Origin: Mantamonas sphyraenae STR306
Taxonomy: Eukaryota > Protista > CRuMs
Assembly: GCA_026936335.1 (NCBI GenBank)
Contig: JAPMXV010000004.1
Location: forward strand, 124,001-188,000
Length of the DNA stretch: 64,000 nt
Direction of reading: 5' to 3'
Shown here: one piece after another, positions 7,274 to 55,277 of the stretch
Layout: each line of letters opens with the position of its first letter
Position numbering within the stretch: position 1 is the stretch's first letter
The notes under the pieces: generated by a model
What the model saw: the letters and a program-made list of their open reading frames with translations, nothing else
Told to the model about the DNA's origin: nothing
The model's database searches: none
Program-made: the position numbers and the translations under genes

Positions 7274-10200
7274 TCACACATTGTCTTCACCTCGAATTTC
7301 CTCTTCCTCCTCCTCCCCCACTTCCTCCTCCTCCTCCTCCTCGGCCTCCTCTTCCATCCTCTCCGCCTCACCATCCACAGGACCAGCGTCCAGCTGGCCT
7401 TCTTCCACCATTTCGTCCTCCACGGCCATCACTGAGGTCTCATCCTCTTCCGCCACCGAGCCCAGGAAAGGACTCAGAATCTTCAGCGTGGTCCGAGCCT
7501 TGAGCCATCTCTCTCTGCCCTTGCCCTCCTCCTGAGCTTCCTGGTCCTCCAACGCAGCTGCCTCCTCCGCATTCATGCCTTGCGCAATGCGACTTGCGTG
7601 TCGTTCACGCCGTTCGCGTCGCCTGCGGCTGATCTCCTTCCAGTTGGCAATGATGATGGACGCCGCGTACAGCTCCGCTTGCGTGTACTGGCTGAGCGAT
7701 ACCAGCGAGTCGCTTGTGTTGCGCCTGCGGATGAACGAGCTGCGGTTGGCACCGGACACCACCGCCGTGTTCTTCAGCTGCTTGCGGATCTCCTCGGGCA
7801 TGGCATCCATGGAAAAGTCGTGCGACTGCGCACTGGCATGTTCCAACAGTGCCAACTCTGTGGGTTTGAACATGACGTTGCCCTGACTGTCTGTGGGGAT
7901 GTCGTACTCCGCCAACGCAAGAAGCTTGTCCTTGCGCGACAGCGATGCATCGATACCCAACGGCTCGCCCAGTTCCTCCAGCATGGGCAGCAGCCTGTCC
8001 GATCCAATGCGACCCGTGGCCTCCGGGTCGTACAGCGACCACAACGTCGAAAACCTGTCCCGCAGCTCGCTGATCACCTGGTTGTCGTCCTGGCGACGCA
8101 TGTTGTCGTACACCTCCAGCATCACCGCCACAATCAGATTGAGCACCACAAAGGTCACACTCACCACAAAGGTGACGAAAAAGATTGCCGACAACACAGG
8201 GTCGCCACACTCATCCTTTGCAGGATCGCAAAACGGCGGCTGGACCATGCAGTCACGCATGAAACCGTTCCAGCCCTCTCCAGTCGACATGCGAAACAGA
8301 AGGAGCATCGAACTGCCAAACGTTTCAAAGTTGGCGTGGCGAGAGAGAAACTCCTGCCGCACCACCTTGCCAAACAGATTCATGCCCAGCACCGCGTACA
8401 CAAAGAACAGCAGAAAGAGCAACGTGCCAATGTTCAGTAGCGACGGTGCTGCAATGTACAGCGTGCGCAGCAACGTGCGCAGACCCTTTGCCTGGCGCAC
8501 AAGCCGCAGAACGCGGGAGATGCGAAACACGCGCAGGATCGCAGCCGCGCTGCCCACGTCAAACAGGATGCCCAACCAGGAGCCCACCACAATGACGAAA
8601 TCCAGCTTGTTCCACGGGTCGCTCATGTACTTGCGCGGGTACAGCGCCACCATCTTCAGCACCAGCTCGATGCTGAAGATCACGGTAAACACAATATTGC
8701 TGATCTCCAGCGTCAGCGACCACTCCGGGGACATAGCGTAGTGCCGAGTTGCCATAAAGATGACGTTGATCACAATGCACACCATGATCACAGAGTCAAA
8801 CACCCTGTTCATGCACCATGCAAATGCGCGTGCGCGCAGTTTGTTCTGCGGCCGCTGCAGGCTCTGCATGGGCTTGGTCTGGTTCATCATTGTGCTTGCC
8901 TGCACCACCCATTGCAGTTGAGCCTCCGACAGCAGTACACTCTTCATGTTGAAGTCCATCTTGATCTTGGTGAACGCATCGATCACCACACCCACAAACA
9001 GGTTGACCAGGAAGAAGGAGCCGATGCTGATGAACGTAATCATAAACAGGGCATTCCACATATTGTGGTTCTCCACGGGTGCGCGTCCAACCTCGGTGGC
9101 GTCGACCACGTTGAGCAGCACCTCCACCCAACCCTCACCACTCGCTGCCTCAAACAGCGTCAGTTCCGCCTGGAGGATGTCGTCAAAGTGCGACGGGGCG
9201 TTGATCCATCGTCGCTCCTGCAATGTGGTCATGCCATCCACTGTGGCGTTGAACATCCCTGTGCATGCCGTTTCCAGTGTCACCGAAGGGTCAGAACACG
9301 TGTAAAACTTGCCCGCGTACAACTGCACGCCCAGGATGCCAAAGATGAGGAAGAAGAAGAGACACACGAGTGCGGCGTTCCCGATGGTGGGGATGGCACG
9401 GAAGATGGAGTTGACCACCACGCGCATGCCTTCGTTGCGACTGATCACACGCAACGGACGCAGCGCACGCAGTGCACGGAACGAGCGGAAGGCCTTGAGT
9501 CCCGACAGGAACAGATCCAGGATGGAAATGATGACAATGAAGCAATCGAGGACATTCCACGAGTTGCGCAGATACGTGCTTGGCCCACGCACAAGCCCCA
9601 GCGCAATGATCTTCACCACCATCTCCACACCAAAGATGACCACAAAGGCAATGTCAAACGCCGACAGGGTCTGTGCAAGCACACTGTCGTTTGCCAGATT
9701 GGGTTCGTCCAAGGCCAGCAGGATGGTGGACACAAGGATGGCCAGCAGAATGGCCCGATCAAACCACTTGTGGTTGATGAGGTCAATGCACGCCTTGCGC
9801 AGCGGATTGTCCAGGGTCAGTACGCCCAGCGCCACACCTTCGCACTTGTGTCCATTGGCCTCTTCTGCTTGCTTGGCCACGGTGTCGTCGCCCTGCATCT
9901 GTGCAGTCAGATCTGCAAGCGTCGGTGCCTTGCGAATCACTCCCCGCTCGTCCAGCTCGTCGTCGTCGTACCGCTTGAACTTTTGCACCGGTATGGACGT
10001 CGGCTGCGGCTGCGGCTGAGTAGCCACGGGCTCCAACACTGCCAACGACGCCGCTGCGTGGTACCCGTTCTCTCGCGACGAGCCATTGCTCTGTGCATCA
10101 GTCGACGCATCCTGACCCCCATTGACCCCACTTGCACCTACGCTTGCATGTGCGCCATTCACGGGCATGGTGCGCATGCGCCGCGGCGGCTGGTGCTCGT

Positions 10201-13018
10201 GGTGGTGCACATGATGGTTCACCTCCAGCATGCTGCCTCCAGACTCGCTGCTGGCCAGAGATCCTCTCTGGGTGCGCATGGAGTTTGTGTCGCTGCGTGA
10301 GGTTCCGCTGTCGCCGCTGTCGCTGTGACGCATGGCGCTGACGCGGGTGCTGCGTCGTCCGGTCTTTTTCTTGGCGGCGTTTGCCACGTAGCGTGAGAGG
10401 GAGCGTGCACGGCCCGCAATGGCTGTCGTGCCCTTGCGCAAATACGTGGAGGCCTTTGCAGCCGCACTGAGCTTTTCGTGGAAGCGTGCGACGGCCTCCT
10501 TGCGTTTGGCAGCAAACTTTTCGATCAGGATGGCCACAAAGAGGTTGAGGATGATGTAGGTGCCCATCACAATCAGGGTCACATAGAAGAGGATGGCCGC
10601 AGGCGAGGTGGCACGCACGCTGTAAAACATGAGTTGGGGCCAGTCCTCGCGGGTCAACACCTGAAAGGTGGCAATGAACGACCAGCTGAACGAGTCAAAG
10701 TTGACACGCGGCACGCCGCCGTCCACTTCGGGAAAGTTGAACGTGCCTCCAAACAGCTGCATGCCCAGCACGCAGTAGATGAAGAGAAAGAGAAAGAGAA
10801 GCACGGGAAACTCGCGCACGGACACGGCACACTCCCAGATGATTTGCAGCAGGTCGTGAAGTGACTCGAGGGAACGCACGAGCTTGAGCACACGGCCCAG
10901 GCGAAACGCACGAAAGGCGGTGAGGCCGCCGGAGCCCGAAGCAAAGGCCACCTCAAGCCACGAAATGATGACAATGGTGCCGTCAAAGAGGTCAAAGGTG
11001 GAGTGCACATACGCGTACACACCCATACCAATGAGCTTGAGGACCATCTCGACGGAAAAGATCAGCGTCAGCGTGAGGTTGGCCACCTCGAGAAAGTCGC
11101 TGAGGGCCTGCGATTGGCGGTGGTGCTCAATGGCCAGAAAGATGGTGTTGACAAAGATGCACAAAAAGATAAACACCTCAAAGGCGTCGTGTTCGATGAC
11201 CCGCTTGCAACCACTGACCACTGCATTGGGCTCGTAGCTACGGTGGCGCGGACGGCAAGGATAGCACAGCACGGATTCCCACACCGTGTTGCCTGCACGC
11301 CGCACGGCGTCGGTTGCGCGCGATTCCCAGTCTGTGTTTTCGGTGAGCTTCACCGTGCGTCGCATACTCATGGGCGACTGAGGCAGATGGGCACCTGGGA
11401 CGTGCATGGTCTCCACATCGACGCCATCCATAAACTTGAGCCGCTCGGCGTCCTCACTGGCAGTGATGGCATCCTCGATGGCCTGGCCTCGTGCGTCGGC
11501 AGCACTCATGGCAAAGTTGTCGTAGATGACGGCCAGGGCGAGGTTGACGACAAAGAAGCCGCCAATGAAGACGAGGGCCACAAAGTAGACCACCACCCAG
11601 TCGTTGAGGGCATCCTGGAGCATGTACATGATGTCTGAATAGCCTTCCATGGTGATGGTTTGAAAGATGATGAGGAAGCTGAATGCAGTGTTGTCAAAGG
11701 TGGTGATGCCGTAGTTTGGGTTGTGGGCCGTGTGGCGACACGTGTAGCCCGCAGGACAGGCCACGCCACCGTGCGATGGATCCAACGAACACAGTTGGTT
11801 CTCCTCGGGCGCATACAGCAGCGCCCCCGTGGCGTCGCTGACACAGCGTTGGCGCAGGACGCCAGCCCACATCTGCACCGCAAAGATGCCAAAGAGGGCA
11901 AAGAGGAGCACACACAGGGTGAACACGTCCAAAAGGCGGGGCAGCGAACTCAGCAGTCCTTCGACGAGGACACGCAGACCGCCAATGTGACTCAAGGTAC
12001 GCAGGGGACGCAGGACACGCAACGTGCGAATGACGCTCACGCCGCCCGTGCCCAGGTCCAGTAGGCCAATGTAGCCCACAAGCACAATGACAAAGTCCAA
12101 TCTGTTCCAGTGGTCTCGCAGGTACGCCTCCTTGCCACGCACAAACCCCAGGGCGGCAATTTTGACCAGCATTTCCAGCGAGAAGATGATAATAAACGCA
12201 AACTCGGCGTTCTGTACGGCACACCAGAGTTGTGTCGGCGGTGGCACACAGTCGGACGTGTCAGTGGGGCTGTGGGAGACCCCCGCGGCTTTGTGTGGTG
12301 TGGATGTGCGGGATGGCGTGTGGTCCAGGGCGAGGGGGAAGGTGGGGAAGGTGTGTGGCCGGGAAACGCCGGCGACCAGTTTTGGCAAGTGGCTGGGCGT
12401 CGATGCCCCGGAGCAACACAGACAGGGTGGAATGGGCACGCGGGAAACATGGGCATTGGACGTACGAAAAGCATGACATTGTCTGCCGAGTTTGGATCCG
12501 AGTCGAGCGGATCGTAGAGAGCGAGAAAGACGCAGTTGATGAGGATGGCCACAATGACGGCGCGGTCGAACCACTTGTTGCTGATGATGTCCTTGCAGAC
12601 GACACTCAGGGTGCGCTGTGGGTTGGAGGGGGGGAGCGGGGGCGGGAGCGGGGAGATACATGGACACGGGTGGTCGGGTTCACACATGGGCCGAGTGTGA
12701 GCCGGGTTGCGGTTCCGTGCCGTTTCGGCTCCAACGGCAAGTTGCGATTGCGAGCAGGACGAGCGGCGGGCTTGTGGGAAAGGCCAACACAGACACAAAC
12801 ACACACAAACACAAACATACCCTGGGCGGTGGTTCTGGTAGCTCGTCCTCGAGGTCATTGTGTGGTGGTATGGTCATGAGGAGACCCGAAGACCGCCTTC
12901 GCGAAGGCGACTCGTCGAGGTCTTCTAGGGGTCGGATCGTACGTGCAGGCTGCCGCAAGGGTGAGTCCATGGGCGATCCTCTCCGAGCCCGTTGACGTCC
13001 AGCGGGTGGAGTTGACAT
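7274..13018 (-). CDS. Four-repeat voltage-gated cation channel alpha subunit with an EEEE (Ca2+-type) filter; exons 13018-12821, 12615-12466, 12211-7274
   Basis: Four S4 segments (e.g. RTLRVLRPLR, RSFRALRALRPLR); pore loops TMEGY, TREDW, SGEGW and TGEGW; C-terminal EF-hand-like YDPEATGRI and an IQ-like segment; GT-AG introns preserve the frame. Confidence 0.93.
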
Positions 13019-16886: not shown

Positions 16887-17911
16887 TCAATCTGTGTCCA
16901 TGGCATTGCTGCCCATGCCACGCATGGCCTGTGCCATCTGTGCAGGCATGGATTCCAAGACCTCCTTCGGCAAAGGCATGCCGGGCTTCCAGCCTGCAGG
17001 CAGAGTCAATCCTCCAGCCATGCCCATGCGTGCCTTTGCATGCTCCGCAGCAGCAGCAGCCTTTGCCATCTGTCGCATCTCCTTGGCTTGTTTCTCCCGC
17101 TTCAGACGCGCCTCTTCTCGTTTGTTGCCCGTCTCGATCAGCTTTGCCAGCTGGTCTGACCTCTGCACCACCTTTTGCACACGTTGCGGCAGATATGCCT
17201 CGACGTCACTCTTGTGTTGCGTTTGGTCGTGCAACACCGACGCTTGCAGCTGCGCGTGCCATGGAAACGGCACCAGAAGCGCCTCCCCCTTGTTCGGCCT
17301 GAACGTGCTCGCCCCAATTCGTCCTGCATACCCGACCAGCTCCTGTACATCCACTTGGTCTGTTGTGTGTGCATGCACACGGGTTTGTGTAACATACACA
17401 CACGTGTTGCATGTGTGTTGTGGTTCGGTGTGTTGTGGTATCGTGTCAGCGGGCGAGTGCCAAGAATCACGACGGTGGAAAGTGGATTCGTGACTTTGTG
17501 GCGTCTCACACACACACATCAACGTACGTTCGGCTGCCTGCTCCATTAGCTGCAGTTGAGAGCGCCCCTTGTTCACCACTGTCAATAGATTACTCTCCAT
17601 GTCCTTCAGGGAGGCCGCCAACGCGTCGATCTGTGCGTCTTTCTCGGCCGCCTTTGCCTCCAGCGCCTCCAGCTTCTTCTGGAACCGCTGGTGTTGTTCC
17701 ACTGTGATTGGTGAGGTGGTGTGGGGTGCCAGGTGACAAGCATGAGCCATCACCACAACAACGTCAGCGAGTGCGCGTGTGCGTACGGGGTGCTTGTCCC
17801 TTACATTCAACAACCTGTGCCTGCAGCACTGTGTCCTTCTCCAACAATGCTTGTAGCACCTTGACAGAACTCCGTTCGTTCTCCTCTGTGTTTGTACCAT
17901 CGCTCGTCGTG

Positions 17912-17952
<41 letters not shown>

Positions 17953-18096
17953 ACCAATGGTGGTGGACCCCGATCTCACGAGCTGAGTCGTGCTCGAGCT
18001 GCCTCCTGCAGCCACACGAGCCTCCCCATCGAGTGCATCAAACAACCGTGCCAGCAAGTCTTGGTAGTCCCGCAGGGTATCCACTACCACGTCCAT
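16887..18096 (-). CDS. MED4: Mediator subunit 4, 3 exons (18096-17805, 17701-17528, 17359-16887)
   Basis: Coiled coil followed by VDVQELVGYAGRIGASTF...VPFPWHAQLQASVL, matching the Med4 'ELISYA.RIS...PYP' pattern. Confidence 0.75.
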
Positions 18097-18186
18097 CACC
18101 TGCCGCCGTTGCTGTGGTGCGTCCAGCGCAATCTGGCAAAGAAAGGAAATTGAGATCTCCCGCAGCACTCCAGCCTCACATCCGCC

Positions 18187-21173
18187 ATGTCATCCAGCAC
18201 AGAATCCTCCCCGAATGCTTCCCATGACAGTTCTGACAAGCTTGCCATCGACGAACTGTCCAGTCCTGACCTGGCTGCCCTGCTCCAGAGTGACGAGCAG
18301 GCAAACTTGCTTATCATCGACTCTCGTCCACCTTTCTACTACAAGAAGGGCATGATCCAAGGTGCCATCAACATCTACCCAACCAGCGCCTCTGTCGATG
18401 CTGCAATCGATGCCATGCCCGACACCGCCAAGGAGCTCTTTGATCGCCGTGCCAAGCTGTGCGTAACCGTCTGCCGTTTGCTTCACCCATCCCCGTGCCT
18501 ATGTCCCTGCTCGCTCTGCTCCCTCTCGTCTCGCTCACACTCACTCAATCATCGATCTCACGCGTTGGGGAATCTGTGCTGATCTTGTCACCACACCCGG
18601 ATCGATGCGACTGCACCGCGTGCGTACCCTATTCTTGCACCACTCCGATCCCGAAAACACCCACAGCAAGCTCGTATGGTATGCCAAGAACAGCCCGTTT
18701 GACGACAGTGTCGGCGAACAGGTGCTCCAGTATCTGCAGGAGGATGCTCAGGTCTCGCACGTCTGGGTGCTCCAAGGTACACACATCCACCTGCCTCAAG
18801 GCTGCATGGATTTGCCAAAAAACACGCCCTTTGCAAGTGCACTTGCTCATCCGCTCCGCATCGTCCGTATCTCAATCCCACTCCCCCGAAAATTCCACAG
18901 GCGGTTTCCGTGATTTTAAAAAGCAATTCAAGGAGTTTTGCAGCAGTGTGTCCTCGCCTCGCCGCCGCAGTAAAGAGAAGCTGCGCGCACGCTCTGTTTC
19001 GCCCGGCAGCCGCCGCAAATCAGGCGACCTTTCCTCTGTCGTTCGCGTATGTTGGGCTCCCGTGTGTCCTCATGCCACTGCATCTGCACCACAATCTGAC
19101 CCATGACCCAACCCATGCACACAGATCTCCACCGATTTGCAAGATCTGCATCTGGGCTCCGTAGCCTTGACGCCCATCATGCACTACTTTTTCTACGACC
19201 AGGCAGACATGGTCGCTCGCCATCACTACAACCAATCGTTCATGTTCAAAGTCACCGCTCCCATGACAGAGACCATCATGGCAGCCACGGTGCGACGCCT
19301 CATCCAAAAGCACGATGCATTTCGCTTCCGATACGAACGCCGTTCCAGCGCAAACAACGAAGACACGGCGTGGCGACAGTACGTGCTGCCACCAGAGGCT
19401 TTTGAGGATGACGACGGCGGCGCCTTCCAACTGGTGAATCTGTCTGCGCTCGAGACGCGCGAGGAGCGGCGCGAGACGCTGGAAACAAAGGCTGCGCAAG
19501 CACAGGCGTCGCTGGACATACAGAAGGGCCCCATGCTGCGTCTGGTGTTGTTTGATCTGGGCACCGACTACGAAGAGGAGACGGATGAGGAAGGAAATAG
19601 GACGGGTGACGAGGGCGGACAGCCGAGCCAGCGTCTGTTGGTGGTCATTCATCACTTGGCTGTCGACGGTGTGTCCTGGCGCGTGCTGATGGACGACATT
19701 GCACGCATCTACCAGCAGGTGCGGAAGGGGGTCAGCACGTCGTTCGGCACCTCCGACTCGTTTGCCCTGTGGGCAAGCAAGCTGCTGTCGTACGCTCAGA
19801 GCGCAGCGGCGGTGAGCGAGGTCGAACACTGGGTCAGCAACGTGGGCGCACGTGCCAAAAAGGCCCTCAAATCCCTACAGCTGCCACTGGACTACACAGA
19901 CGGCGTGGAAAACATGCTCAAGTCCAAGGTGGACGTGGTGCGCATCCAACTGACGGTGGAGGAGACCGAAGCCGTGCTGCGCCTGCTGCCAGCACAGTTC
20001 AACACTCGCATCAACGACGTCCTTCTCACCGCCACTGTGATGGCTTTGAAAAAGTGGACGGGGGCCACCAGCGCCCTGCTGGACATGGAGGGCCACGGTC
20101 GCGAAGACATTGTGTCTGGGGTGGACATTTCCGGCACCATCGGTTGGTTCACCTCCATCTTCCCGGTCTTTGTGGACATCAAGGGCGCCAGCTCCGACGT
20201 CGAGGCCCTGCACATGGTCAAGGAGACCCTTGCGGCCATTCCGAACAACGGCGTCGGCTACGGCATCCTGCGCTACCTCAATCGCAACACCTCGCTGCGC
20301 ACACGCCTCACCGACATGCCCTCACCACAAATCTCCTGGAACTATCTGGGTCAGTTTGGCAGCAGCTTCAACAGCAGCACCTCCTCTTCCTCCGCTTCGT
20401 CGTCGTCGTCGTCCTCTTCTTCCTCCTCATCCAAGTCGCGAGGGTCGACCAGGAGCAGTGGCACGGGAAGCAAGCACAAACTTCTGGCCAAGCGATCGGC
20501 CTCCCTTGCCGATGCCCTGTCCAGCCCGTCTTCGTTGTCATCCATGGAAACCGGCAGTGTGCTGAGCATGGACACGGACGAGAGTGCAGACGAGAGCAAG
20601 GAGTCCACGACCAGCCGACTGCTGTTTCCCGAGGCCGACGACAACGATGACGAGGGATTGACAGCGAGCAAGGCCAACCACGAGGTGATGGCAGATGAGC
20701 CAACAGGTGACAAGGAAACCACACAGGCAAGCGAGAAGGATGTGGGTGTGTATGGACCCGAGGATGGAAGCCCACTGTTTCAGATGGCCAGCGAAAATAA
20801 GGGTGCCGACTCGTCTCTGGAACAGACCAAAGACCACGTGCTGGACTTTTACGGCTGGCTCATGGGCGACCAGCTGGAGTTTTTCGTGGCGTACAGCACC
20901 GACATCCACAAGCGCAGCACCATGGACAAGCTGGCCTCGTACTTTCTCAAGTCGCTCACCAACCTCATCGACGCCGCCGCAGACGCCGCAGGCACCGCCT
21001 CGCCAAGCCGTACCAACAGCAACAATCACAGCCACGGTGGAAACTCGTCGTCGTCGTCGTCGTCGTCGTCCCCCGGCAGTGCAGGCAGCACAGGAAGCAG
21101 TGGATCATCACGCCGCTTCTCATTCCGCAAACGCTCGCTCTCCCTGCGTGGCAGCAACAACAACAATGCATAA
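18187..21173 (+). CDS. Rhodanese-like domain fused to a stand-alone NRPS epimerization (E) domain; exons 18187-18458, 18667-18776, 18901-19046, 19125-21173 (858 aa)
   Basis: Rhodanese: LIIDSRPPFYYKKGMIQGAINI...VWVLQGGFRDF. E-domain motifs: LTPIMHYFF, HHLAVDGVSW, NDVLLTA, EGHGRE, TIGWFTSIFP, PNNGVGYG, WNYLGQF. The splice phases are consistent. Confidence 0.85.
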
Positions 21174-21264: not shown

Positions 21265-24200
21265 TCACTGCAGCAGCTCGGTGGCCGGGAGGGGCTCGTA
21301 GCTGACCTCCTCCTTGACCATCTTGACGCTGCCGAGGTTGATGGCAGCCATGTCTTCGTCGTCGATGTGGTTGATGTAGTCGCTGAGGTAGTAAATGAGC
21401 AGGAGGGGCTTCTGCGGGATTTCCTCCTTGAAACGGGCCACCGACTTTGCTGGGTAGCGCAGCTCGTTGTTGCCGCTGTTGAACGTAAAGTTGCGTCGGC
21501 ACCACTCGATCAGCGTGTCCACCACCTGGACCTCGAGCGAAGCAGCAATGTACTTTTTGATCGGAGCGCAGCCCTCGTGCAGCAGCGACAGACACAACAG
21601 CAGGCGCGGGTCGGGCTCCTGCACCACAAACGCACGTCGCGGGTCGCCGCCGCGGAAGAGGCGATGGCGTGTGACCGGGTTCTTGGGGTTGCCTCGCAGC
21701 ACGCCGGTTTCCACGTCGGCCAGCGAGAACAGCTGCATGCCCACCATGTACTTGTAGTTGCTCTGGAACTTTTCGCGGCGCTTCTTGTCGCGCGGGGCTC
21801 CGTACAGGATGTGCTCGTGGATGACCATGCAGTGGTACAGGTTCAGGAAAAAGGTGCACTTCTCCTGGTGGCTGTTCAACTCGCTCAGGTTGACTTGCTG
21901 CAGCTCCGCCGTGGCTTCCACAAACGCCTTGAATCCGTCCGTGCGTGCCATGTCCGACCAGGGAATCTCCTCCGATGTGCTCTGCGACGCGTGCTCGTAC
22001 ACAATGGCCATGGCCTGCTCGAGGAGGCCGTCCATGACCTCGACGGGGTGGCCGCACATGGCCTTGAATTCCACTTCCATGTTGAGGACCACGTCCTTGC
22101 TGTTGATGACCTCGTGGGTGTTGTCGGCGCCCACCAGGTAGCCCTCTTCCAGGTCGTAGAAGATCTGGTTGTTCCAGTTGATCGGGGCCGAGTTGACGGT
22201 GACCGATTGGTTGTTGATCATGTCGGCCATGGTCAGGCGCTGCTCCTCCGTGAGGTAGGCCTCAATCCAGCTCAGGGTCTCGGTCAGGTTCTTGCCGAAA
22301 TCGGTGCGGTACAGGTCAAACAGTTTGGGCAGGACGATCTCCTTCTTCTTGAACTCGATGCGCTGGCGCAAAAAGGTGACGGTGGAGTACTCGAGCTGGT
22401 CGTCGAGCTTGTCGGCGTAGAAGATGCGCACGACGGGCGAAGAGACGGTGAGGTGGGAGAGACAAAAGTGGACGCGTGGGTCGACCTTGTCGCAGACGAG
22501 TTCGCGGCGAGGGTCTCGGCGTCCGAAGCGCTTCTTGAAGTTTGCGCGCAGGATGCCGTGCTGGATGTCGTCGAGACAGTAGGCGAGGCCGCCGACCTTG
22601 TAGCGATAGACGGAGAAAAAGGTGCGGCGTGCAAAGAGGGTGTCGGGTGCGCCGACGGTGACGTGGATGTGGAACACGAGCACGTTGTAGAGGTTGGTCC
22701 AGAAGGCAATCTTCTCCTTGGGCTTGAGATTGGACACGTCGACTTCCTGCAACTCGGCAGCGTTCTCGACAAAGTCCTCAAAGGCCTCTGAGCCTGCCAT
22801 TTCCCAAAAGTCTGCGCTCTGGCCGCGCACAAACTTGCCGATCTTTGTGCGGTGCTGGATGTAGATGCGCTGGACGGCGTCGAGCAGATCTGCAGCGACC
22901 TCTCCTGCGGGACGGGGCGGGTCGGTCCACTCGATGTCGCCGTTGAGCACCCAGGCGTCGTCGTCCTGGAACTCTTCGCCTGCCTTGTCGGAGGTGATGG
23001 GTTGGTACTCGTTGGAAATTTGCGTCTTTTGCAGCATGGTGGTGAAGCCGACAATGTCGTAGTCGATGTGCTCCTCCTCGGGCTCGTCCTCGGGGAAGAA
23101 ATAGTTGCTGATCTTTTCGGTGTTGTCACACAGGTGTTTGTAGAAATCGAGCAGGCGCGTCTGCAGGGTCTGCGGATCGAGGCGGTCCTCCGGCACAGGC
23201 GGCACAATGAGGTTGCCGTCGTCGTCCTCGGGCAGCGGGTTGGACGACAGCGAATGGAAGTACTTGCCGATGGTTTCGTAGTTGGTGATGATGAACGAGT
23301 TGAGCGCATGCATAAACTCTTCCTTGCCGACGAATTCGACACCGTTGGCCAAGTTTTGCACCACCTTGGCGACAAGCACCATTGCTCGACGAGCCTCACG
23401 CGTGGGCTTGGCTGTGCAAAACGTGAGTGGAAGGGGGTGGGGGGATGCGGGAAACAGGGGGTTTGGTGGGGTGTGTGTGAGCAGGTTGGTGGAGGTGGAG
23501 CTGGCGTCACGGGCGGGAGGGTCTTGGCGCAACGTACTGTCGACGAGCTGGTACAGCTCGGGGGTCACAATGGAGGGACACACGAAACGCAGGAACATGA
23601 AACCAGCCACCGAGACCTTCCAGTCGTCGGGGAACTTGCTGGACACGATGTCCTTGAGGAGGGAGCAGACGTTTTTCAGCTCGCTGCAAGGCGTGTCCCG
23701 GAAATTTCGAGTTGGGCACAAAAGCGGAGACAAACACGTGCGGGACGGGCAGAGGGACGGGTAAGTAAAGGGCAGCGTGTGGAACGAAGAATGTGCAGAG
23801 TGGCAGGCGAGACAAGGAGAGCAGAGGGTGCACGCGTGCCCGGTAGGGGCGCGAAAGGAAGGGCGAAGTGGGCGAGAGAACGGGGAGGGCCGAAAATGTG
23901 AAACTTACGAGGGACACTGCTCCTCGGTGTCGAGCATGGCGTCGAGGATGGACTGGGAGTAGCCCTCAATGCGCTGCAGGTTGGCCTCAATGTCGGTGTC
24001 GTCCTTGACACGACCCGGATCGACCTGATGATGGGGAGAGCGTTCGCGGGGCTGTGTGTGAGTGGGGCGGCGGAGAGGAGCAGGGCATGTGTGGATAACT
24101 CACCTCCAGGCTCTCTGTGATGGACACGAGGTCGTCCAGGATGGGCTTGAGGGTGTCGCGCAGGTAGTCGTGGCCCACCAGCATGGCATAGTTGGACATG

Positions 24201-24766
24201 AGACGCGTGGCGACGGAGTTTCCTCGGAACAGGGTGGTGGCGTGCTCTGCGCGCAAATTTCGTCAGTGACGCCAACGGCCAAACAAAGAAAACGGGGCCG
24301 GGAGCAGGAAGGAGGGTGGATGGCGAGCACGCGGGAAGGTGTGGGCCAAGGACAGGGAGAGATGGATGGCGGGCGGGGGTCGTGCGAGCAACTCACCAGT
24401 GGCATCGACCTCGCGGGAGATGACAAAGCGGAGCAGGTCCATGTTTTGGTTGAGAGCCTCAAAGATGTAAATGATGGCCTTGCAAGCCTTGTCACCGCCT
24501 GCCTGGGTGGCAGTGACGTCACACACACAGGCCATGAGGTTGTACTCCTTGTCCGAGATGTAATCGATGAACTGCGGGTACTGCTCGAGCAGCAGCTCGG
24601 CCTCGGTCTTGGCGCGCACCTGTTGGGCAATGTTGAAGGCCTCCTCTTCCTCGTCTTCCTCGTCGTCCGACTCGTCGCCCTCCTCCCCTTCGCCTCCTTC
24701 GATCACTTCGACCTCTTCCTCGGCCACGGTGGCTTGCTCGACGGCGTTCTTCTCTTCGTCGCTCAT
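21265..24766 (-). CDS. RasGAP domain followed by two DUF547 domains, multi-exon
   Basis: TTLFRGNS arginine finger and FMFLRFVCPSIVTP RasGAP signature; two repeats of the DUF547 pattern (AFWTNLYN...LDDIQHGILR...DPRVHF and FFLNLYH...LADVETGVLR...DPRLLL). Confidence 0.85.
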
Positions 24767-36432: not shown

Positions 36433-36714
36433 TGGAGCCAGAGAAGGGGAGTGGGAAGGAGAAGGCGCGGGAGGAACTGACACAGTGTGACGTCGACACA
36501 GGGAGCTCCACGGCAGGTGAAGTTCACACAGATACACAAGCACACACACACAGCATTGATCTGCCTAGAAATTGTCCGAGTTGTTCATGAAAACACTCTC
36601 TTCTCTCGGTCTCACCTCTCCCTTTTCAATTCTCTCCTCCTCCGGGGTGTGTGTGTGTGTTGTGCCATCCCTATGTCCTTCCCTTCATCTCCACACAGTT
36701 CATCGCTCTCCGAT

Positions 36715-36817
36715 TTAGCCCAGCGCAGGGAACGCGCTCTCGTCCTTAAAGTTGGGGCCACGACCTCCGCCGCGTCCGCCGCTGCGTCCACCCTGGTTGC
36801 CGCGGCCACCCTGGCGG

Positions 36818-36852
<35 letters not shown>

Positions 36853-38113
36853 GCGACGGTCGCCACCACGGCCACCACCACGGCCACCACCACGTCCGCC
36901 CTGACGGTCGTTGTTGCGGCGGTCGTTGTTGCGTCGGTCGCCACGGTCGCCGCGATCGAAGCGGTCGTTCGAGCGAGACTCGCGGGCATAGCTCTGGCCC
37001 ACAAGCTCCACAATACCCTCCTGCTCCGTCGAGCGCTGAGCATGCTTGCCACGCTTCTTGTTGCCCTTCTTCTCCTTGCGCAGAGCAAACAGACCCTCCT
37101 CCATCAGGTCGTCGTCGTTGCGCTCAAGTGCCTCCACCTCGTCGTCGTAGTCCTCAACCTCACGCGGGGCGCCAGCACGCAGCTCGGCTGCCTTGGCTTC
37201 CTGCTCAGCCAGGTACTCGTCCAGATCGCGCTGTGTGTGTGTGTGTCCATGTGTGTGCCATCCCCAATGGATGTCCCATCTCCACGTGTCAGCTCGCTCG
37301 CTCTCTCCTTGCCCTCTCTTTCACAAATCCGTTCCACCCTTCAACCCCATCCATCTCTCCACACAATCTTCCACACACTTGTCTGCTCCACACCCACGTC
37401 AGACTCTCCACCCGCCACCCTCTCATCATTCTCCCTCACGCCGTCCTATCCCTCTTGGTCCCACACGCCCCTCTGTGCTCGGTTCTGAGCTTGCGCACAT
37501 GCAACTCACCTGCGGCTCGTCGTTCTCAGCCTGCTCGCCACCCTCGCCAGCGTTCTCCTCGCCATCCTCGTTGCGGTTGTTGTTGTTGGACTGCACACGC
37601 AGGTCGTCCTCAAACGTGCCCCAGTTGTGGCTGCCCTTGCCGCCGCGCTTCTCGCTGTCGTAGCGGCCAGTGCCCGACACATGACGGTCCTTGGCGCGGC
37701 CACGCTGGTTGCCAGCGTTGCCGCCGCTGCCGCCGGCGTTGCGCGAGGCTGTGCATCGCAGAAGTGGGTGGGTGTGCAGTGTCAGCAGGCACTCGCTCGG
37801 GTGGTGGCGCAGGTTGAAACGGGCGCTCAATTTTCGGTGCATTTTGGTCGCGTGAAACACGCTGGTGCAGACACAAGAGTGGGGTGGCGACGGCCATGCG
37901 ATCAAGCACGGAGAGGGATAGGGGAAATGGGGGACAGTGCAGGTGGTGATGGGACGTGGGGGGTGGGTGATGGGACTGGGTGGGGTGCACAGGGATCTCT
38001 GTGTTTGGGCAGTGGTGGGAGTCGTAGAGAGGGTGTGGTGACGCATGGAACGTACTCTGCTCCTTGGGAGCATCCTGCTCGTCGTCCAGAAGTGCAAAGG
38101 GGTTCGAAGACAT
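36715..38113 (-). CDS. SERBP1/HABP4/Stm1-like RGG RNA-binding protein, copy 1 (3 exons)
   Basis: MSSNPFALLDDE, DRHVSGTGR..EKRGGKGSHNWGT, LDEYLAEQ, RGG repeats and a C-terminal DESAFPALG. Confidence 0.85.
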
Positions 38114-38462
38114 CTTGTTTCGGTTGTTGGGGTGGGTGGTCGAGCGCTGCTGGTGGCCCGACAGGACACAGCCGTCACCTGCCCAACTGTTGACGGAGTT
38201 GTGGGAAGCATGGAGAAACTATGTGGCAATGGGAGAGGCGTGGATGGGTGGCGGACCGTGTGATCCATTCATGGGAAAACGGGGAGGCTGTCGACCCTCA
38301 CACGAACCACACAGTTGAGAACCCATCCACTGACTCCACACCGATCCCTGACATTGAACTCAGTTCATTCCTTTGCACACTCCCATCTCGTGTTCCTGCC
38401 CAGCCGCCAAAAATACGGCGGGCTTCCAGCGCAGTACCACCCACCCCAACAACCGAAACAAG

Positions 38463-39723
38463 ATGTCTTCGAACCCCTTTGCACTTCTGGACGACGAGCA
38501 GGATGCTCCCAAGGAGCAGAGTACGTTCCATGCATCACCACACCCTCTCTACGACTCCCACCACTGCCCAAACACAGAGATCCCTGTGCACCCCACCCAG
38601 TCCCATCACCCACCCCCCACGTCCCATCACCACCTGCACTGTCCCCCATTTCCCCTGTCCCTCTCCCTGCTTGATCGCATGGCCGTTGCCACCCCACTCT
38701 TGTGTCTGCACCAGCGTGTTTCACGCGACCAAAATGCACCGAAAATTGAGCGCCCGTTTCAACCTGCGCCACCACCCGAGCGAGTGCCTGCTGACACTGC
38801 ACACCCACCCACTTCTGCGGTGCACAGCCTCGCGCAACGCCGGCGGCAGCGGCGGCAACGCTGGCAACCAGCGTGGCCGCGCCAAGGACCGTCATGTGTC
38901 GGGCACTGGCCGCTACGACAGCGAGAAGCGCGGCGGCAAGGGCAGCCACAACTGGGGCACGTTTGAGGACGACCTGCGTGTGCAGTCCAACAACAACAAC
39001 CGCAACGAGGATGGCGAGGAGAACGCCGGCGAGGGTGGCGAGCAGGCTGAGAACGACGAGCCGCAGGTGAGTTGCATGTGCGCAAGCTCAGAACCGAGCA
39101 CAGAGGGGCGTGTGGGACCAAGAGGGATAGGACGGCGTGAGGGAGAATGATGAGAGGGTGGCGGGTGGAGAGTCTGACGTGGGTGTGGAGCAGACAAGTG
39201 TGTGGAAGATTGTGTGGAGAGATGGATGGGGTTGAAGGGTGGAACGGATTTGTGAAAGAGAGGGCAAGGAGAGAGCGAGCGAGCTGACACGTGGAGATGG
39301 GACATCCATTGGGGATGGCACACACATGGACACACACACACACAGCGCGATCTGGACGAGTACCTGGCTGAGCAGGAAGCCAAGGCAGCCGAGCTGCGTG
39401 CTGGCGCCCCGCGTGAGGTTGAGGACTACGACGACGAGGTGGAGGCACTTGAGCGCAACGACGACGACCTGATGGAGGAGGGTCTGTTTGCTCTGCGCAA
39501 GGAGAAGAAGGGCAACAAGAAGCGTGGCAAGCATGCTCAGCGCTCGACGGAGCAGGAGGGTATTGTGGAGCTTGTGGGCCAGAGCTATGCCCGCGAGTCT
39601 CGCTCGAACGACCGCTTCGATCGCGGCGACCGTGGCGACCGACGCAACAACGACCGCCGCAACAACGACCGTCAGGGCGGACGTGGTGGTGGCCGTGGTG
39701 GTGGCCGTGGTGGCGACCGTCGC

Positions 39724-39755
<32 letters not shown>

Positions 39756-39858
39756 CCGCCAGGGTGGCCGCGGCAACCAGGGTGGACGCAGCGGCGGACG
39801 CGGCGGAGGTCGTGGCCCCAACTTTAAGGACGAGAGCGCGTTCCCTGCGCTGGGCTAA
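38463..39858 (+). CDS. SERBP1/HABP4/Stm1-like RGG RNA-binding protein, copy 2 (exons 38463-38520, 38828-39066, 39346-39858)
   Basis: Same motifs as copy 1; GT-AG introns preserve the frame. Confidence 0.85.
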
Positions 39859-40120
39859 ATCGGAGAGCGATGGACTGTGTGGAGATGAAGGGAAGGACAT
39901 AGGGATGGCACAACACACACACACCCCGGAGGAGGAGAGAATTGAAAAGGGAGAGGTGAGACCGAGAGAAGAGAGTGTTTTCATGAACAACTCGGACAAT
40001 TTCTAGGCAGACCACAGAGAAGAGGGACGGAGTGACAAAGAGTGTGTGCATCGATGCACTCCACAACGTGTCCACTTCTGTGCGCCTTCTCCAGCAGATC
40101 TTTCTCGACCACACACAGCC

Positions 40121-48279: not shown

Positions 48280-51200
48280 ATGTCCACCACAGACGGTCAG
48301 CACGAACAGCAAGTACCAGAGGATTACGACAGCCTGTCTCGCAAGACCGGTACGATCGTGTTTGTGGGAAAGAAAGGAAGCGGGAAAAGTTGCCTGGCCG
48401 GCACGCTGTACTTCCACTTTACCGGCGAGGACGAGCGGTGGATCAAGCGCAAACTGGAGAGGCTCACCGCCGAGTACACACGACACGCCTCGGGGCATCC
48501 TGTGGGAGGAGTCATGGCGTATTTCATGGACAAGACCTACACAGAGAGGGAGACGCTTTCGACCAACCGGGGCAACTACGAGGCGTTGCAGTGAGTTGCA
48601 CGTGTGCGAGCCGTATTATTCGACATTTGTCTGCGGCCCGTTGTCGTGCGTGATCTCTGTGTGATCTCTGTGCCCGTGGCTGACCCGGTCGCAAACCTTC
48701 ACACAAACACTCCCCCCGCAGCATCGATGGTCGACTGTGGAACATCATCGATGCACCAGGGAACCCAAAGTACGAGAAACGTGTGGTGCATGCGTTGGGT
48801 CTTGCAGACGTGATGGTTCTCGTTGTTGGTTCGGACGAAGTGGAGGACAAAGAAACGTGGGGCCGTTCTGGCGTCATGGTTCAGCGAATCGCCACTGCAT
48901 TTATGCTGGGTGTGCGGCAGGTGATTGTGTGCATCAACAGGCTGGACCAGGAATCCCAAAATCTGCGCGAGAAAGCGTACGAGGCAGCTGCGACGATGGT
49001 TGCGCTCGTACTGAAGCGGGTGGGCTTCCATGGCAAGCGTCATTTCGTGCAGTTCCTCCCAATCAGCTGCGCACTTGTCCTTGAGGGCCACAACGTCGTT
49101 TCAGAGGACCCCGAAGTGTTTCCATGGTGGAAGGGCCCATGTTTGGCGGAGTTGCTTACACGAGCTCAAACGGAGAAGTGCAATCCAGATTGCACTGGCT
49201 TCATGCTCATCCGTGAATGGTTCAAAATTGGAGGGATTGGCACAGTGTGTTCTGCGGTGGTTCTCCAGGGCACGATCAGGGAAAACAGACGCATGGACGT
49301 CGGAGACGGGACAATCAAGCTGATGTGTCGCAGTCTGGAACGATGGTTCGAGGGGTTGCAAGAATGTGGGCCAGGCGATATGATTGCTTTGAATGTGCGT
49401 CGTACAAGCTCGTACGAGGCGAATCGATGCATCCGCCATGTGCACGCTGTGGATGGGGGAGATTTCCAGATGCCGAATCACTGGGCAGCGCTCACCAAAG
49501 TGCCCAAGATGGCCACCTGGCACTCGGGAAAAGAGGACGTCCCAGACCTTGTGGACATGTTTGTGGCGGATATCCGTCTTGTGCGCACGCGGTTGCACAA
49601 ACGAGGCAAACCGTTCGATGTGGGCTCAAGCATGGACCTGTCGTACATGATCGGCTGCACGCAGGCCAAAGTGGTGTCCATCATTGCACGGCTCGACCAT
49701 GACTTTCGTGTGGTCGAGCGCTACCCGGAGCAGTTGCACAAGCGTGACGTGCTCCGGGTGCTGCTGAAAACCACCAAGCCCATCTTTGTGCAAAAGATGA
49801 ATCTGATTCCGCGTTTGGACAAGATCGTGCTGAAAGACACGTTTGGGGTCGTAGGTGGAGGTGTCGTGCGCAAAGCAGCAGCACGGCGCACGTTGAACAT
49901 TGGCGTGCGCGAAGGAACGGAAGAAACACGGGTTGAAGGCGTCCAGCGTCTGCTGGCTGAAGAGTTTGACGTGCAGCTTCATACGTTCTCCACATGCACA
50001 CGTTCGGTGCTGTCTGGTTTGAATTTGCTGTACACAAGCAACGTGGAGGGCGACGAGATGGAGTGTGTGGAAGAGTTTGTTCGCCGCGGTGGCTCGGTCC
50101 TCTACCATGTTCGTGCATCGTCGCTTTCGCACAGCTTGCTGGCTGCATATGGTATGGTTGTCGAACCAGCACGGGCCGATGGCATCCACATGGGCCACGT
50201 GCGCTTCCGCAACGACGGACTGAAGAAACCGGACGACGACACGCAAGACACGGTCAGCTTTGACTCCATCATGATGACCATAGACAGGGGACGGTGGCAG
50301 GAGGACGATGGACAAATGGTAGGATCAAGCGACGCCGAGCAGGTGGAGCTGACGTTGGAGCAGCGGCGACGTTGGAATCGAGAGGAGAGACGAAAGCGCA
50401 GGCGAGAAAGGCGGCAAGAAAAGCTACGATGGAAGCTGGAGGTTGCAGAGATGTTGGATCTGGAGCAAGACGGGCTGAAGGAGGAAGACTGGAAAGACCT
50501 GAGCAGCGCAGAGGCTCGCCGTAGGCGCAGGGAAGGCAAGCAGCGTTGGAAGGCAGACATCGCCCGTCTTGAGGAGCAAGCACAGCACAGGATGCAGACC
50601 GACTTGACACGTGAGGAGATGGAAAGCTGGGACCACAAAGAAGTGGTACGATTTGTGGCAGGGCATCGTGCGTTGAGGCTGTATCTGAAGGAGATTGCAC
50701 AAAGCCCGATGACAGGCAAGGATCTGGTGCGCTTTGACCATGCGGATTGGGAGTCGATGCTTGCAGGAGTGTTTGCGGGAGAAGAGTGTGGGCGCAACGC
50801 GGTGAGCGCAGTGCAGGAAGTGCTAGAGGCGATTGAGCGTCGAGAAGCCACACAAAACGAGAATAGTGTGGTCGAGGAAGTGCAGGTGGGGGTGGAGGGT
50901 GTCCGTGTGGCGCGGTTGGGAGGGCCGGGTTTGCAACGCACGCTGAGCGCGCAGGAGGTCATGGTTGAAGAAGCGATGGATGACGAAGAGGACGACGGAT
51001 TGGGTGATGCATTGGAATCGCTGCACAGTGAAGCGAGCGAGGCTGTTGTAGTCGAGCTGGATCATCGGCTGGGGCGGACCGAGTCGTGGGCAGGCGAGTC
51101 GAGGTCCGATCGCGATCAGATTGACATTGAAGACTTGCCTGAGGAGGTGTGGTTGCGAATATTTACATACCTGGACGATCCCCAGTCCGTGTGTGCAGTC

Positions 51201-51800
51201 GCGCAGACCTGCGGTTGGTTCAACGACCTTGCAGACAGAGATGTGGTGTGGGAGTCGCTGTGCGAACAAGCAGGGGTGCTGTGGATGTCTCAAACACGGC
51301 ACGTGCGTGTGAACGAGGAGTTGGCGCACAATCTGCTCGAACGCAGCGAGTTCAAACTGCGTTTCTACGCCTACTGGACGCTTGTCCGTGATGGTCCACT
51401 TGGCTGTTTGGCACGCGGCGTGTATGGAAAGGGAAGGTTCCTGGACATGCAGGGTGTTCATGATGGACATTCGTCACTGACCCTCACCGAAGAGGTTCCA
51501 GGGGTGGATGTGGTGGCGTCTCGGCGTCGCCGCAGAGGAGGAGGAGCGGTGATGGTCTACGCCAAGCCCGGTCACATGGACAACCGCAAAGGACAGATGC
51601 TTGTTCTTCTCGATGTGTCACCGACCAACAGGCAGGGATCAGGGTGCCTGACTCACAGGATGCTTGCTAGGAAGGGCAACAATGCTCGCGTGTGGCTGAA
51701 GAACTACGCGCACGTGGCTTCCTTCATGCGGCCAAAGATGATGGCCTCGGGAGATGGAGGAGTGGAAGGACAGTCGTCGTCGTCGTCTTCCTCAACGTGA
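48280..51800 (+). CDS. eEF1A-like GTPase + split GIFT/GATase-like domain + SAM + F-box, paralog 1 (exons 48280-48590, 48722-51800)
   Basis: GKKGSGKS, IIDAPGN, CINRLD, WWKGPCL, KIGGIGTV and a domain III barrel; SAM-like ESWDHKEVVRF...TGKDLV; F-box IEDLPEEVWLRIFTYL...VAQTCGWFNDLA. Confidence 0.85.
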
Positions 51801-51852
51801 GTGTGTGAGCATGCCCGAGGCGCGCCACGAGAAAAGCAACTGCCTGCTGCAA

Positions 51853-54800: not shown

Positions 54801-55210
54801 TTCAGTACTATCTGCACTACAAGAACGCCCGTGAGGGCCATTTGGGCTGCCTGAGCCACGGCGTGCATGGCAAGGGCCGCTGGATGGGCTACTCCGGCGT
54901 CGATGGATACTTTGCGCTGAAGAACACCAATGAGATGCTGGTGGCGGCTTCGCGTCCCAAGAGGGTGGGAGGCGGAGCCATCATGCTGTATGCCAAACCC
55001 GGCACGTACGGCATGCGAGGGCAGGTGCTACTTATTGCCAAAGACCGGCACTCGGAGGCCTTTACTGACCGATCGCTGCAGAACCGTCGCAACAACGAGC
55101 GGATCTGGTTGAAGAACTTTGGTCATGTGTGTGCGTTCGGACGTGCAGGAAACGAGTATGTTTCAGGCGACGAGGGCTCATCGTCGAGCAGCAGCAGCAG
55201 CAGTCGCTGA
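51853..55210 (+). CDS. eEF1A-like GTPase + split GIFT/GATase-like domain + SAM + F-box, paralog 2 (exons 51853-52127, 52219-55210)
   Basis: GPCDGGKT, AWLLDRTKLERERGLTI, VDAPGHPDFVK, CITRLD, KIGGIGTV; SAM-like QGWTHEELMRL...VDGRNLL; F-box IEDLPEEVWLRVFCFL. Confidence 0.87.
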
Positions 55211-55277
55211 TAGGGAGTGTGTTCAACAATGGAGTTCATGCATGATGCAATGTCCCCTTGCACACCCAACCCAAATC

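Follow-up and report, generated by a model that had tools for sequence, protein, structure and literature searches.

Can an epimerization (E) domain of a nonribosomal peptide synthetase (NRPS) exist, and perhaps work, without a peptidyl carrier protein (PCP) domain in the same chain? This question is raised by a predicted gene at positions 18187-21173 (plus strand) of a 64-kb stretch of the genome of Mantamonas sphyraenae STR306 (64,000 nucleotides of contig JAPMXV010000004.1), hereafter called the window. Four plus-strand exons, joined through GT-AG introns, give a single predicted open frame of 858 amino acids (aa), in which a rhodanese-like domain is followed by an E domain. A sequence-only reading had proposed spliced rhodanese exons in frame with an intronless E exon, and this arrangement was recovered as a predicted frame with the following parts:

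18187..18458, plus strand: predicted exon 1, with the ATG at 18187, a short Ser-rich leader and the N-terminal half of the rhodanese-like domain (PF00581, 27.7 bits; codon model +0.15 bits/codon)
18459..18666, plus strand: predicted intron 1, GT..CACAG, 208 nt, with near-tied alternative ends and less certain than introns 2 and 3
18667..18776, plus strand: predicted exon 2, the rhodanese active-site loop with Ala97 (18683-18685) for the catalytic Cys, a helix and the last strand, placed by alignment to a rhodanese hidden Markov model (HMM); codon model +0.35 bits/codon
18777..18900, plus strand: predicted intron 2, GT..CACAG, 124 nt; the rhodanese C-terminal L-x-G-G motif is completed across the junction
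18901..19046, plus strand: predicted exon 3; the rhodanese domain ends at about 18941 and is followed by a linker rich in Ser, Arg and Lys that contains kinase-site-like motifs
19047..19124, plus strand: predicted intron 3, the fusion junction, GT..CACAG, 78 nt, phase 0, with an in-frame stop if retained
19125..21173, plus strand: predicted exon 4, the E-domain exon, 2049 nt, open, its stop codon ending at 21173

The rhodanese-E fusion is well supported as predicted splicing, because the E domain starts upstream of the first in-frame Met and retention of intron 3 gives a stop. The open frame of exon 4 begins after a stop at 19104-19106, and the conserved E-domain residues Q182, G187 and L191-T192-P193 precede the first in-frame Met (residue 195, ATG at 19179). 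Translation of these residues therefore requires a spliced upstream exon, and exon 3 ends at an in-frame donor (19047). Of the 26 AG dinucleotides within 18460-19130, only the three acceptors of the model lie in a CACAG context. With a codon model from seven other open reading frames (ORFs) of the window, every exon segment scored best in the frame of the model (+0.01 to +0.59 bits/codon). For introns 1 and 2, every one of the six frames scored negative; for intron 3 five did, the exception being one minus-strand frame. The rhodanese HMM, built from 51 rhodanese domains that were picked with exon 1 and hence circular for that exon, aligns over both internal junctions (exon 1/2 and exon 2/3). 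When 3556 open alternatives were ranked with this HMM, intron 2 of the model was found in five of the top 12 other entries, including the top scorer. Pairing a donor at 18463 with the acceptor at 18666 was rejected, as it yields a stop. The proposal that all three small exons encode rhodanese holds for exons 1 and 2; exon 3 is mostly Ser/basic linker, with the rhodanese domain ending early in it.

The E-domain exon itself divides as follows:

19125..19166, plus strand: what is left of the PCP-to-E linker, opening exon 4 and aligned with the bacterial thiolation-to-epimerization (T-E) linker; Q182 and G187 are kept
19167..20357, plus strand: main part of the E domain, with HHLAVDG, EGHGRE and the NYLGQF end (PF00668, 198 bits; TIGR01720, 103 bits)
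20358..20771, plus strand: Ser/Thr/acidic insert, a 138-aa spacer predicted to be disordered (predicted local distance difference test, pLDDT, below 50 at ORF residues 411-542)
20772..20969, plus strand: C-terminal part of the E domain after the insert, seen as second tblastn segments (HMM independent E-value 7.6e-11; pLDDT mostly 87-97, one block at 66)
20970..21173, plus strand: Ser-rich basic low-complexity tail and stop codon, where bacterial E domains carry a C-terminal docking (COM-type) segment

Exon 4 encodes a genuine NRPS E domain, as judged from its sequence, its predicted fold, its place in the trees and its catalytic residues. In addition to the Pfam match to PF00668, its TIGR01720 score lies above the cut-off of 74.2 bits, and all ten of its PDB sequence matches are E-domain constructs (PvdL, GrsA, TycA, TycB and BacC; E-values 1e-52 to 1e-59). 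In the ESM Atlas, exon 4 matched bacterial condensation clusters (0.98). An AlphaFold2 model of the exon was made from a 19-row alignment (predicted template modelling score, pTM, 0.69); its core is confident, whereas the insert and the tail are disordered. E structures head the Foldseek ranking of this model (E-values 1e-34 to 2e-30), and other folds of the condensation (C) family follow at 1e-19 and weaker. Trees were built from 116 rows (the full set of 75 E domains from loci, 25 from proteins, and 15 C domains) and later from fewer rows, in subsets chosen by hand. In the 116-row tree, and in a 69-row tree with six C domains as outgroup, the exon 4 domain falls within the E clade, with a Shimodaira-Hasegawa-like approximate likelihood ratio (SH-aLRT) support of 100 against the C domains. 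Its assignment to the E rather than the C class was thereby borne out. The opposite case, an ordinary coenzyme A (CoA) acyltransferase with widespread eukaryotic orthologues, did not hold: a WS/DGAT-type enzyme is ruled out by a TIGR02946 score of 15.5 bits, far under the cut-off of 309.95, and no eukaryotic orthologue surfaced in the searches made.

The signature motifs are found at residues 352 (HHLAVDG), 498 (EGHGRE), 513 (GTIGWFT), 549 (PNNGVGYG) and 581 (WNYLGQF). The catalytic residues are His353 (19653-19655) and Glu498 (20088-20090). H353, D357 and E498 equal the corresponding residues of 188/188 bacterial E domains, and Y583 those of 187/188. For the E domain of BacC, one His and one Glu are named as key catalytic residues in PMC12402864, and judged by the motifs they would correspond to H353 and E498. 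We further scored 94 near-invariant columns, each at least 90% conserved, against a baseline of 186 bacterial rows (two of the 188 were too gappy) that is biased, its rows having been selected on canonical motifs. The predicted protein keeps 80 of these columns, its long branch notwithstanding. The 14 changes are mostly conservative; Q195M, K385T, R513G and R546A are not, and F581W differs as well. Thus, the claim that all seven E signature motifs are present holds in that they are recognizable and the catalytic ones intact, while these five positions are non-canonical. R513G is weakened as a mark of lost carrier binding. Among 21 metagenome loci found by a pattern that requires this change, 17 have a PCP upstream of the E domain and the other four are fragments.

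After the last motif, the spacer of 138 aa compares with 8 aa in 155 bacterial E domains (maximum 17), which gives an insert of about 130 aa. The E domain is conserved on both sides of it, resuming and completing after the insert. A Ser/acidic insert at this place had been noted before; its presence stands, and its length is corrected from about 150 aa.

Within the gene and the window, this E domain stands alone. HMMs from 116 PCP and 19 A (adenylation) segments, run against 1288 six-frame segments, detected neither an A nor a PCP domain, whether in the gene or elsewhere in the 64-kb window (best A match at an independent E-value of 0.21). In tblastn with 12 NRPS proteins against the window, only the E region matched at meaningful E-values. 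The absence of both domains, already stated in the sequence-only reading, was therefore confirmed, and the arrangement of an NRPS module, with a PCP directly upstream of the E domain in the same chain, is missing from gene and window. Among the bacterial relatives, a PCP motif lies at most 110 aa upstream in 168/188 E domains and a variant PCP in one more; 19 of the 188 start too near the record end to judge, so that 169/169 assessable relatives are PCP-linked. Five bacterial records (P0031, P0044, P0079, P0106 and P0117) hold an E domain only, on contigs long enough for more, and may reflect either split genes or E domains that naturally stand alone.

We compared the predicted protein with canonical E domains, namely those of PvdL (E2; 9LCO, 9LCP, 9LCQ and 9UP2), GrsA (5ISW, 5ISX), TycA (2XHG, 9BFD, 9BFG), TycB3 (6TA8) and BacC (9RDE). 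It resembles them in sequence, in predicted fold, in the HHxxxDG and EGHGRE motifs with the catalytic His and Glu, and in the PCP-E linker remnant. Unlike them, it lacks an upstream PCP, neither gene nor window provides an A or C partner, and it carries the insert of about 130 aa, a Ser-rich tail in place of the docking segment and changes at K385, R513 and R546. It is also fused to a rhodanese and encoded by an intron-bearing eukaryotic gene.

The N-terminal domain is, by sequence, a rhodanese fold without the catalytic Cys. Exon 1 alone matches PF00581 above the cut-off of 22.2 bits. In the rhodanese HMM alignment, Ala97 occupies the Cys column, so that the active-site Cys of a catalytic rhodanese or Cdc25 phosphatase is absent, as had been read from the loop. 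The best PDB matches of exon 1 are weak (Cdc25C, Cdc25A and DUSP16/MKP7; E-values 0.046-0.11), the ESM Atlas gave weak leads for this exon (0.80-0.81), and exon 2 alone had no relevant PDB match. A model of the half-domain was poor (pLDDT 62, pTM 0.33) and produced no fold match at an E-value below 0.001; its weak matches are mostly rhodanese folds of several kinds, among them TSTD1, Uba4/MOCS3, USP8 and RDL2, each with an E-value of at least 2. In MAP kinase phosphatases (MKPs), an Arg-Arg docking motif directly follows a stretch of the G-A-I-N-I type, and no Arg-Arg directly follows the G-A-I-N-I stretch of the predicted protein. Of the earlier assignment to a Cdc25/MKP-type rhodanese, the rhodanese part stands, and the evidence for the subtype is weak.

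Rhodaneses without the Cys serve as docking domains in MKPs and in USP8. By analogy, the domain described here is likely of the docking type. The predicted protein resembles the kinase-binding domain of MKP7/DUSP16, the USP8 rhodanese and the Cdc25 fold, to which exon 1 has weak matches, in having a Cys-less rhodanese before a catalytic domain. It differs from MKP7/DUSP16 and USP8 in that the catalytic partner is an NRPS E domain rather than a phosphatase or protease, and a docking role would follow by analogy.

The rhodanese-E fusion is known from this single example. Searching longer proteins with exon 1 gave 197 candidates, none with an E-value of 0.01 or better. Against 1.84 billion representatives, exon 1 had 28 matches; 17 of these were scanned with Pfam, of which 13 belonged to the rhodanese family and none had a condensation domain. 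Pattern searches of metagenome and viral contigs with the E domain gave 73, 5 and 31 matches, of which none was confirmed. The 21 metagenome loci with the R513G pattern had no rhodanese match, and none of them was closer over the whole domain than the bacterial matches. A search of the open-access literature by exact words did not find the fusion either. The host itself appears isolated: for Notchless, a WD40 protein encoded in the window, the relatives among the 120 best listed are at most 62% identical and spread across amoebozoans, animals, fungi and plants. Judged by such comparisons, the host is likely a protist without a close relative in the databases searched, and missing orthologues therefore say little. 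Given this isolation and the limits of the searches, the failure to find a second fusion is weak evidence.

The gene is old and integrated in the host genome. Its G+C content at third codon positions (GC3) of 0.77 lies within the range of the host genes (0.65-0.86), as does its codon use (rank correlation of relative synonymous codon usage, RSCU, 0.885 against 0.78-0.92 for seven host genes), so that we regard it as an old integrated gene and not as contamination. Med4, RasGAP-DUF547, a four-repeat ion channel, Nic96, MINDY, Rieske and WD40 are among the Pfam matches of the window, which is eukaryotic. Bacterial contamination or misassembly was rejected on the basis of the host-like GC3 and codon use, the flat GC profile and the eukaryotic neighbours. 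Host-like codon use and introns also bear out integration into the host genome.

As for the source of the E domain, homologues were searched among proteins of 375-1194 aa. The best 120 of 1452 matches included no eukaryotic orthologue; the named organisms were all bacterial and none came from the EukProt source. The identity to bacterial E domains is 38% on average and 43% at most, in comparison to 23-27% for seven metagenome E domains (L082, L084, L087, L088, L089, L094 and L100) that are provisionally labelled as fungal-type by their motifs. Each of these fungal-type domains is PCP-linked within a large NRPS, and all of them have G for R at 513, which was a requirement of the search. In free trees, they form their own clade without the predicted protein, whose E domain sits on a long branch (1.03-1.2) among bacteria. 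Its nearest neighbours shift from a Bacillota-rich group (116 rows) to a mixed group (69 rows) and to Cyanobacteria (38 rows and another later tree). A Bacillota donor was dropped, since the position moved to Cyanobacteria or the mixed group in other trees. Taken together, the E domain was probably acquired from bacteria, a conclusion that rests on identity rather than on the tree. The metagenome NRPSs also contain a very divergent PCP-linked E-domain family (L083, L092 and L096), whose members are near-identical to each other and lie on a branch of length 2.4. In PMC6361889, the C domains of dinoflagellates are classed as LCL type.

What could such a protein do? Tentatively, we read it as a possible trans-acting epimerase of thioester-bound amino acids. 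According to this reading, the E domain, most likely taken from bacteria long ago, would have been excised from an NRPS at the PCP-E linker and later spliced behind a host docking domain. Binding of the rhodanese to a partner loaded with an aminoacyl or peptidyl thioester would take the place of the covalent PCP tether; candidates for this partner are a free PCP or acyl carrier protein (ACP), a CoA ester and an NRPS-like module from another locus. The D form would then arise through alpha-proton exchange by His353 and Glu498, and the Ser-rich linker, insert and tail may add control by phosphorylation. Since the catalytic pair is kept over a long branch and the carrier is lost at the linker, an active epimerase with non-covalent docking is the simplest reading. 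It would resemble VibH (1L5A) and SgcC5 (4ZNM, among the fold matches) in being a single C-superfamily domain that, as proposed here, acts in trans on the substrate of a separate carrier. Unlike these condensation enzymes of bacterial clusters, it is of the E type, lies among unrelated housekeeping genes and has an additional docking-type domain.

Several observations weigh against this proposal. In the gene model, exons 2 and 3 are weakly supported by the rhodanese HMM. The model scores 56.9-57.4 bits compared to 53.2 bits for exon 1 read through, and its junction set ranks sixth of the 3556 open alternatives (top score 59.8); because of these near-tied alternatives, the exact ends of intron 1 are its least certain part. 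Regarding the origin, approximately unbiased (AU) tests do not reject a clade of the predicted protein's E domain with the fungal-type rows (p 0.656 with 38 rows and LG+G4; p 0.631 with 25 rows and a site mixture), and in both tests the constrained tree outscored the free quick search. The horizontal acquisition put forward by the sequence-only reading is thus favoured by the identities, while the AU tests admit a fungal-type clade. Regarding function, no partner for the E domain was found within the 64-kb window, and the literature search by exact words yielded no free-standing E domain, so that action in trans is without precedent in the open-access texts covered. The retention of near-invariant columns (0.85) is under the minimum of 0.87 seen among the 186 bacterial E domains, a set selected on canonical motifs. 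Three near-invariant basic residues are lost (K385T, R513G and R546A), which could indicate a changed or lost carrier-binding site. Finally, PMC10510592 describes E domains as acting on PCP-delivered (thioester) substrates through a 20-aa linker. Because E chemistry is described there on such substrates, a trans activity directed at ordinary peptides or proteins is least likely.

An alternative that we consider unlikely is a repurposed stand-alone acyltransferase or thioester hydrolase of the same fold. His353 would serve to transfer acyl or aminoacyl groups onto an amine or alcohol, with CoA or a carrier as donor, and the rhodanese would localize the enzyme. The carrier tether is gone, K385, R513 and R546 are lost, and the 130-aa insert directly follows the last motif, at what is presumably the start of the bridge over the active site. 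Moreover, free-standing enzymes of the C family exist, and VibH accepts a small-molecule amine (PMC10510592). However, the E-specific Glu498 motif, which an acyltransferase does not obviously need, is kept together with the 80 E-invariant columns. The fold ranks with E domains, and no drift towards C-type or WS/DGAT profiles is seen.

Quite unlikely, in our view, is a role in binding or as a scaffold without catalysis, comparable to that of the glycopeptide X domain, or a role in sensing thioesters or D-amino acids as ligands. The long branch and the lowest retention of invariant columns would fit such a role. Inactive domains of the C/E family are known (PMC1894796), and the X domain is listed in PMC10510592. 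Nevertheless, all the catalytic residues checked are intact, whereas in dead domains the His or Glu would usually be the first to be lost, and the Glu motif is not obviously needed by a dead scaffold.

We give little credence to a layout like that of a MAP kinase phosphatase, with a protein client bound to the inactive rhodanese and an E domain that epimerizes a residue of an ordinary peptide or protein without a thioester. The order of inactive rhodanese, Ser/basic linker, catalytic domain and Ser-rich tail would suit it, as would the weak best PDB matches of exon 1 to Cdc25C, Cdc25A and DUSP16/MKP7. Against it, E chemistry is described for thioester-bound substrates, and the alpha proton of an amide is much harder to remove than a thioester-bound one. 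In addition, the fold matches of the rhodanese also include TSTD1, Uba4/MOCS3, USP8 and RDL2, and Arg-Arg is absent after G-A-I-N-I. It may be added in favour of this alternative that eukaryotic peptide L/D isomerase activities exist, with the enzymes mostly unidentified (PMC11277431). A wider rewiring into a signalling-type enzyme, in which the rhodanese would dock the client, the Ser-rich segments would be controlled by kinases and the E domain would write D-residues outside an assembly line, is very doubtful as well.

It is also highly improbable that the E domain is a slowly decaying, functionless remnant of a lost NRPS and the fusion an accident. The 14 substitutions at near-invariant columns, the large low-complexity insert and the missing orthologues could be read in this manner. 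Yet the 2049-nt exon is open, its codon use is host-like, most of the 14 changes are conservative, and the conservation of the E-domain halves around the insert implies long purifying selection; with a host so isolated in the databases, missing orthologues are uninformative. The least probable alternative, a rhodanese gene that ends in intron 3 with the E exon as a separate gene or joined to another 5' exon, is compatible with the closed rhodanese-only protein (possibly an isoform) that intron 3 retention gives, but a separate E gene from ATG 19179 loses the conserved upstream residues, an in-frame GT donor and a CACAG acceptor lie 78 nt apart, and both neighbouring genes are on the minus strand, which leaves no other plus-strand first exon.

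These neighbours lie close to the rhodanese-E gene on either side, and further loci were noted elsewhere in the window:

16887-18189, minus strand: Med4-like gene (Pfam match 16890-17975), its apparent start about 90 nt away from the rhodanese ATG, which lies on the other strand
21265-24392, minus strand: RasGAP and DUF547 gene (two matched stretches), its stop less than 100 nt from the rhodanese-E stop
7274-12679, minus strand: open frame of 1801 aa, encoding a voltage-gated channel of the Ca/Na type that has four repeats and a GPHH domain
36557-38149 and 38427-40014: near-perfect inverted duplication of about 1.6 kb in total, the main arms 1330 nt at 99%, 277 nt apart
38194-39150: ORF with an HABP4/PAI-RBP1 match, flanked by the inverted duplication
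48684-58112, plus strand: three tandem paralogues of about 1000 aa each, in which an F-box domain is joined to a divergent EF-Tu/eEF1A-like GTPase

The position of the Med4-like gene suggests that it may share a bidirectional promoter with the rhodanese-E gene. The inverted duplication may be real or an assembly artefact. The GTPase-F-box paralogues are another unusual domain fusion in the same genome as the rhodanese-E gene.

E domains are described as acting in cis while tethered to their carrier; an intact carrier-free one that selection has maintained behind a eukaryotic docking-type domain represents a natural test of epimerization in trans. If the signalling-type reading were true, the protein would represent L/D isomerases of a novel kind in eukaryotes. 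If the preferred reading of a trans-acting epimerase is true, epimerization in trans would be useful for NRPS engineering and would give microbial eukaryotes a novel way of making D-amino acids.

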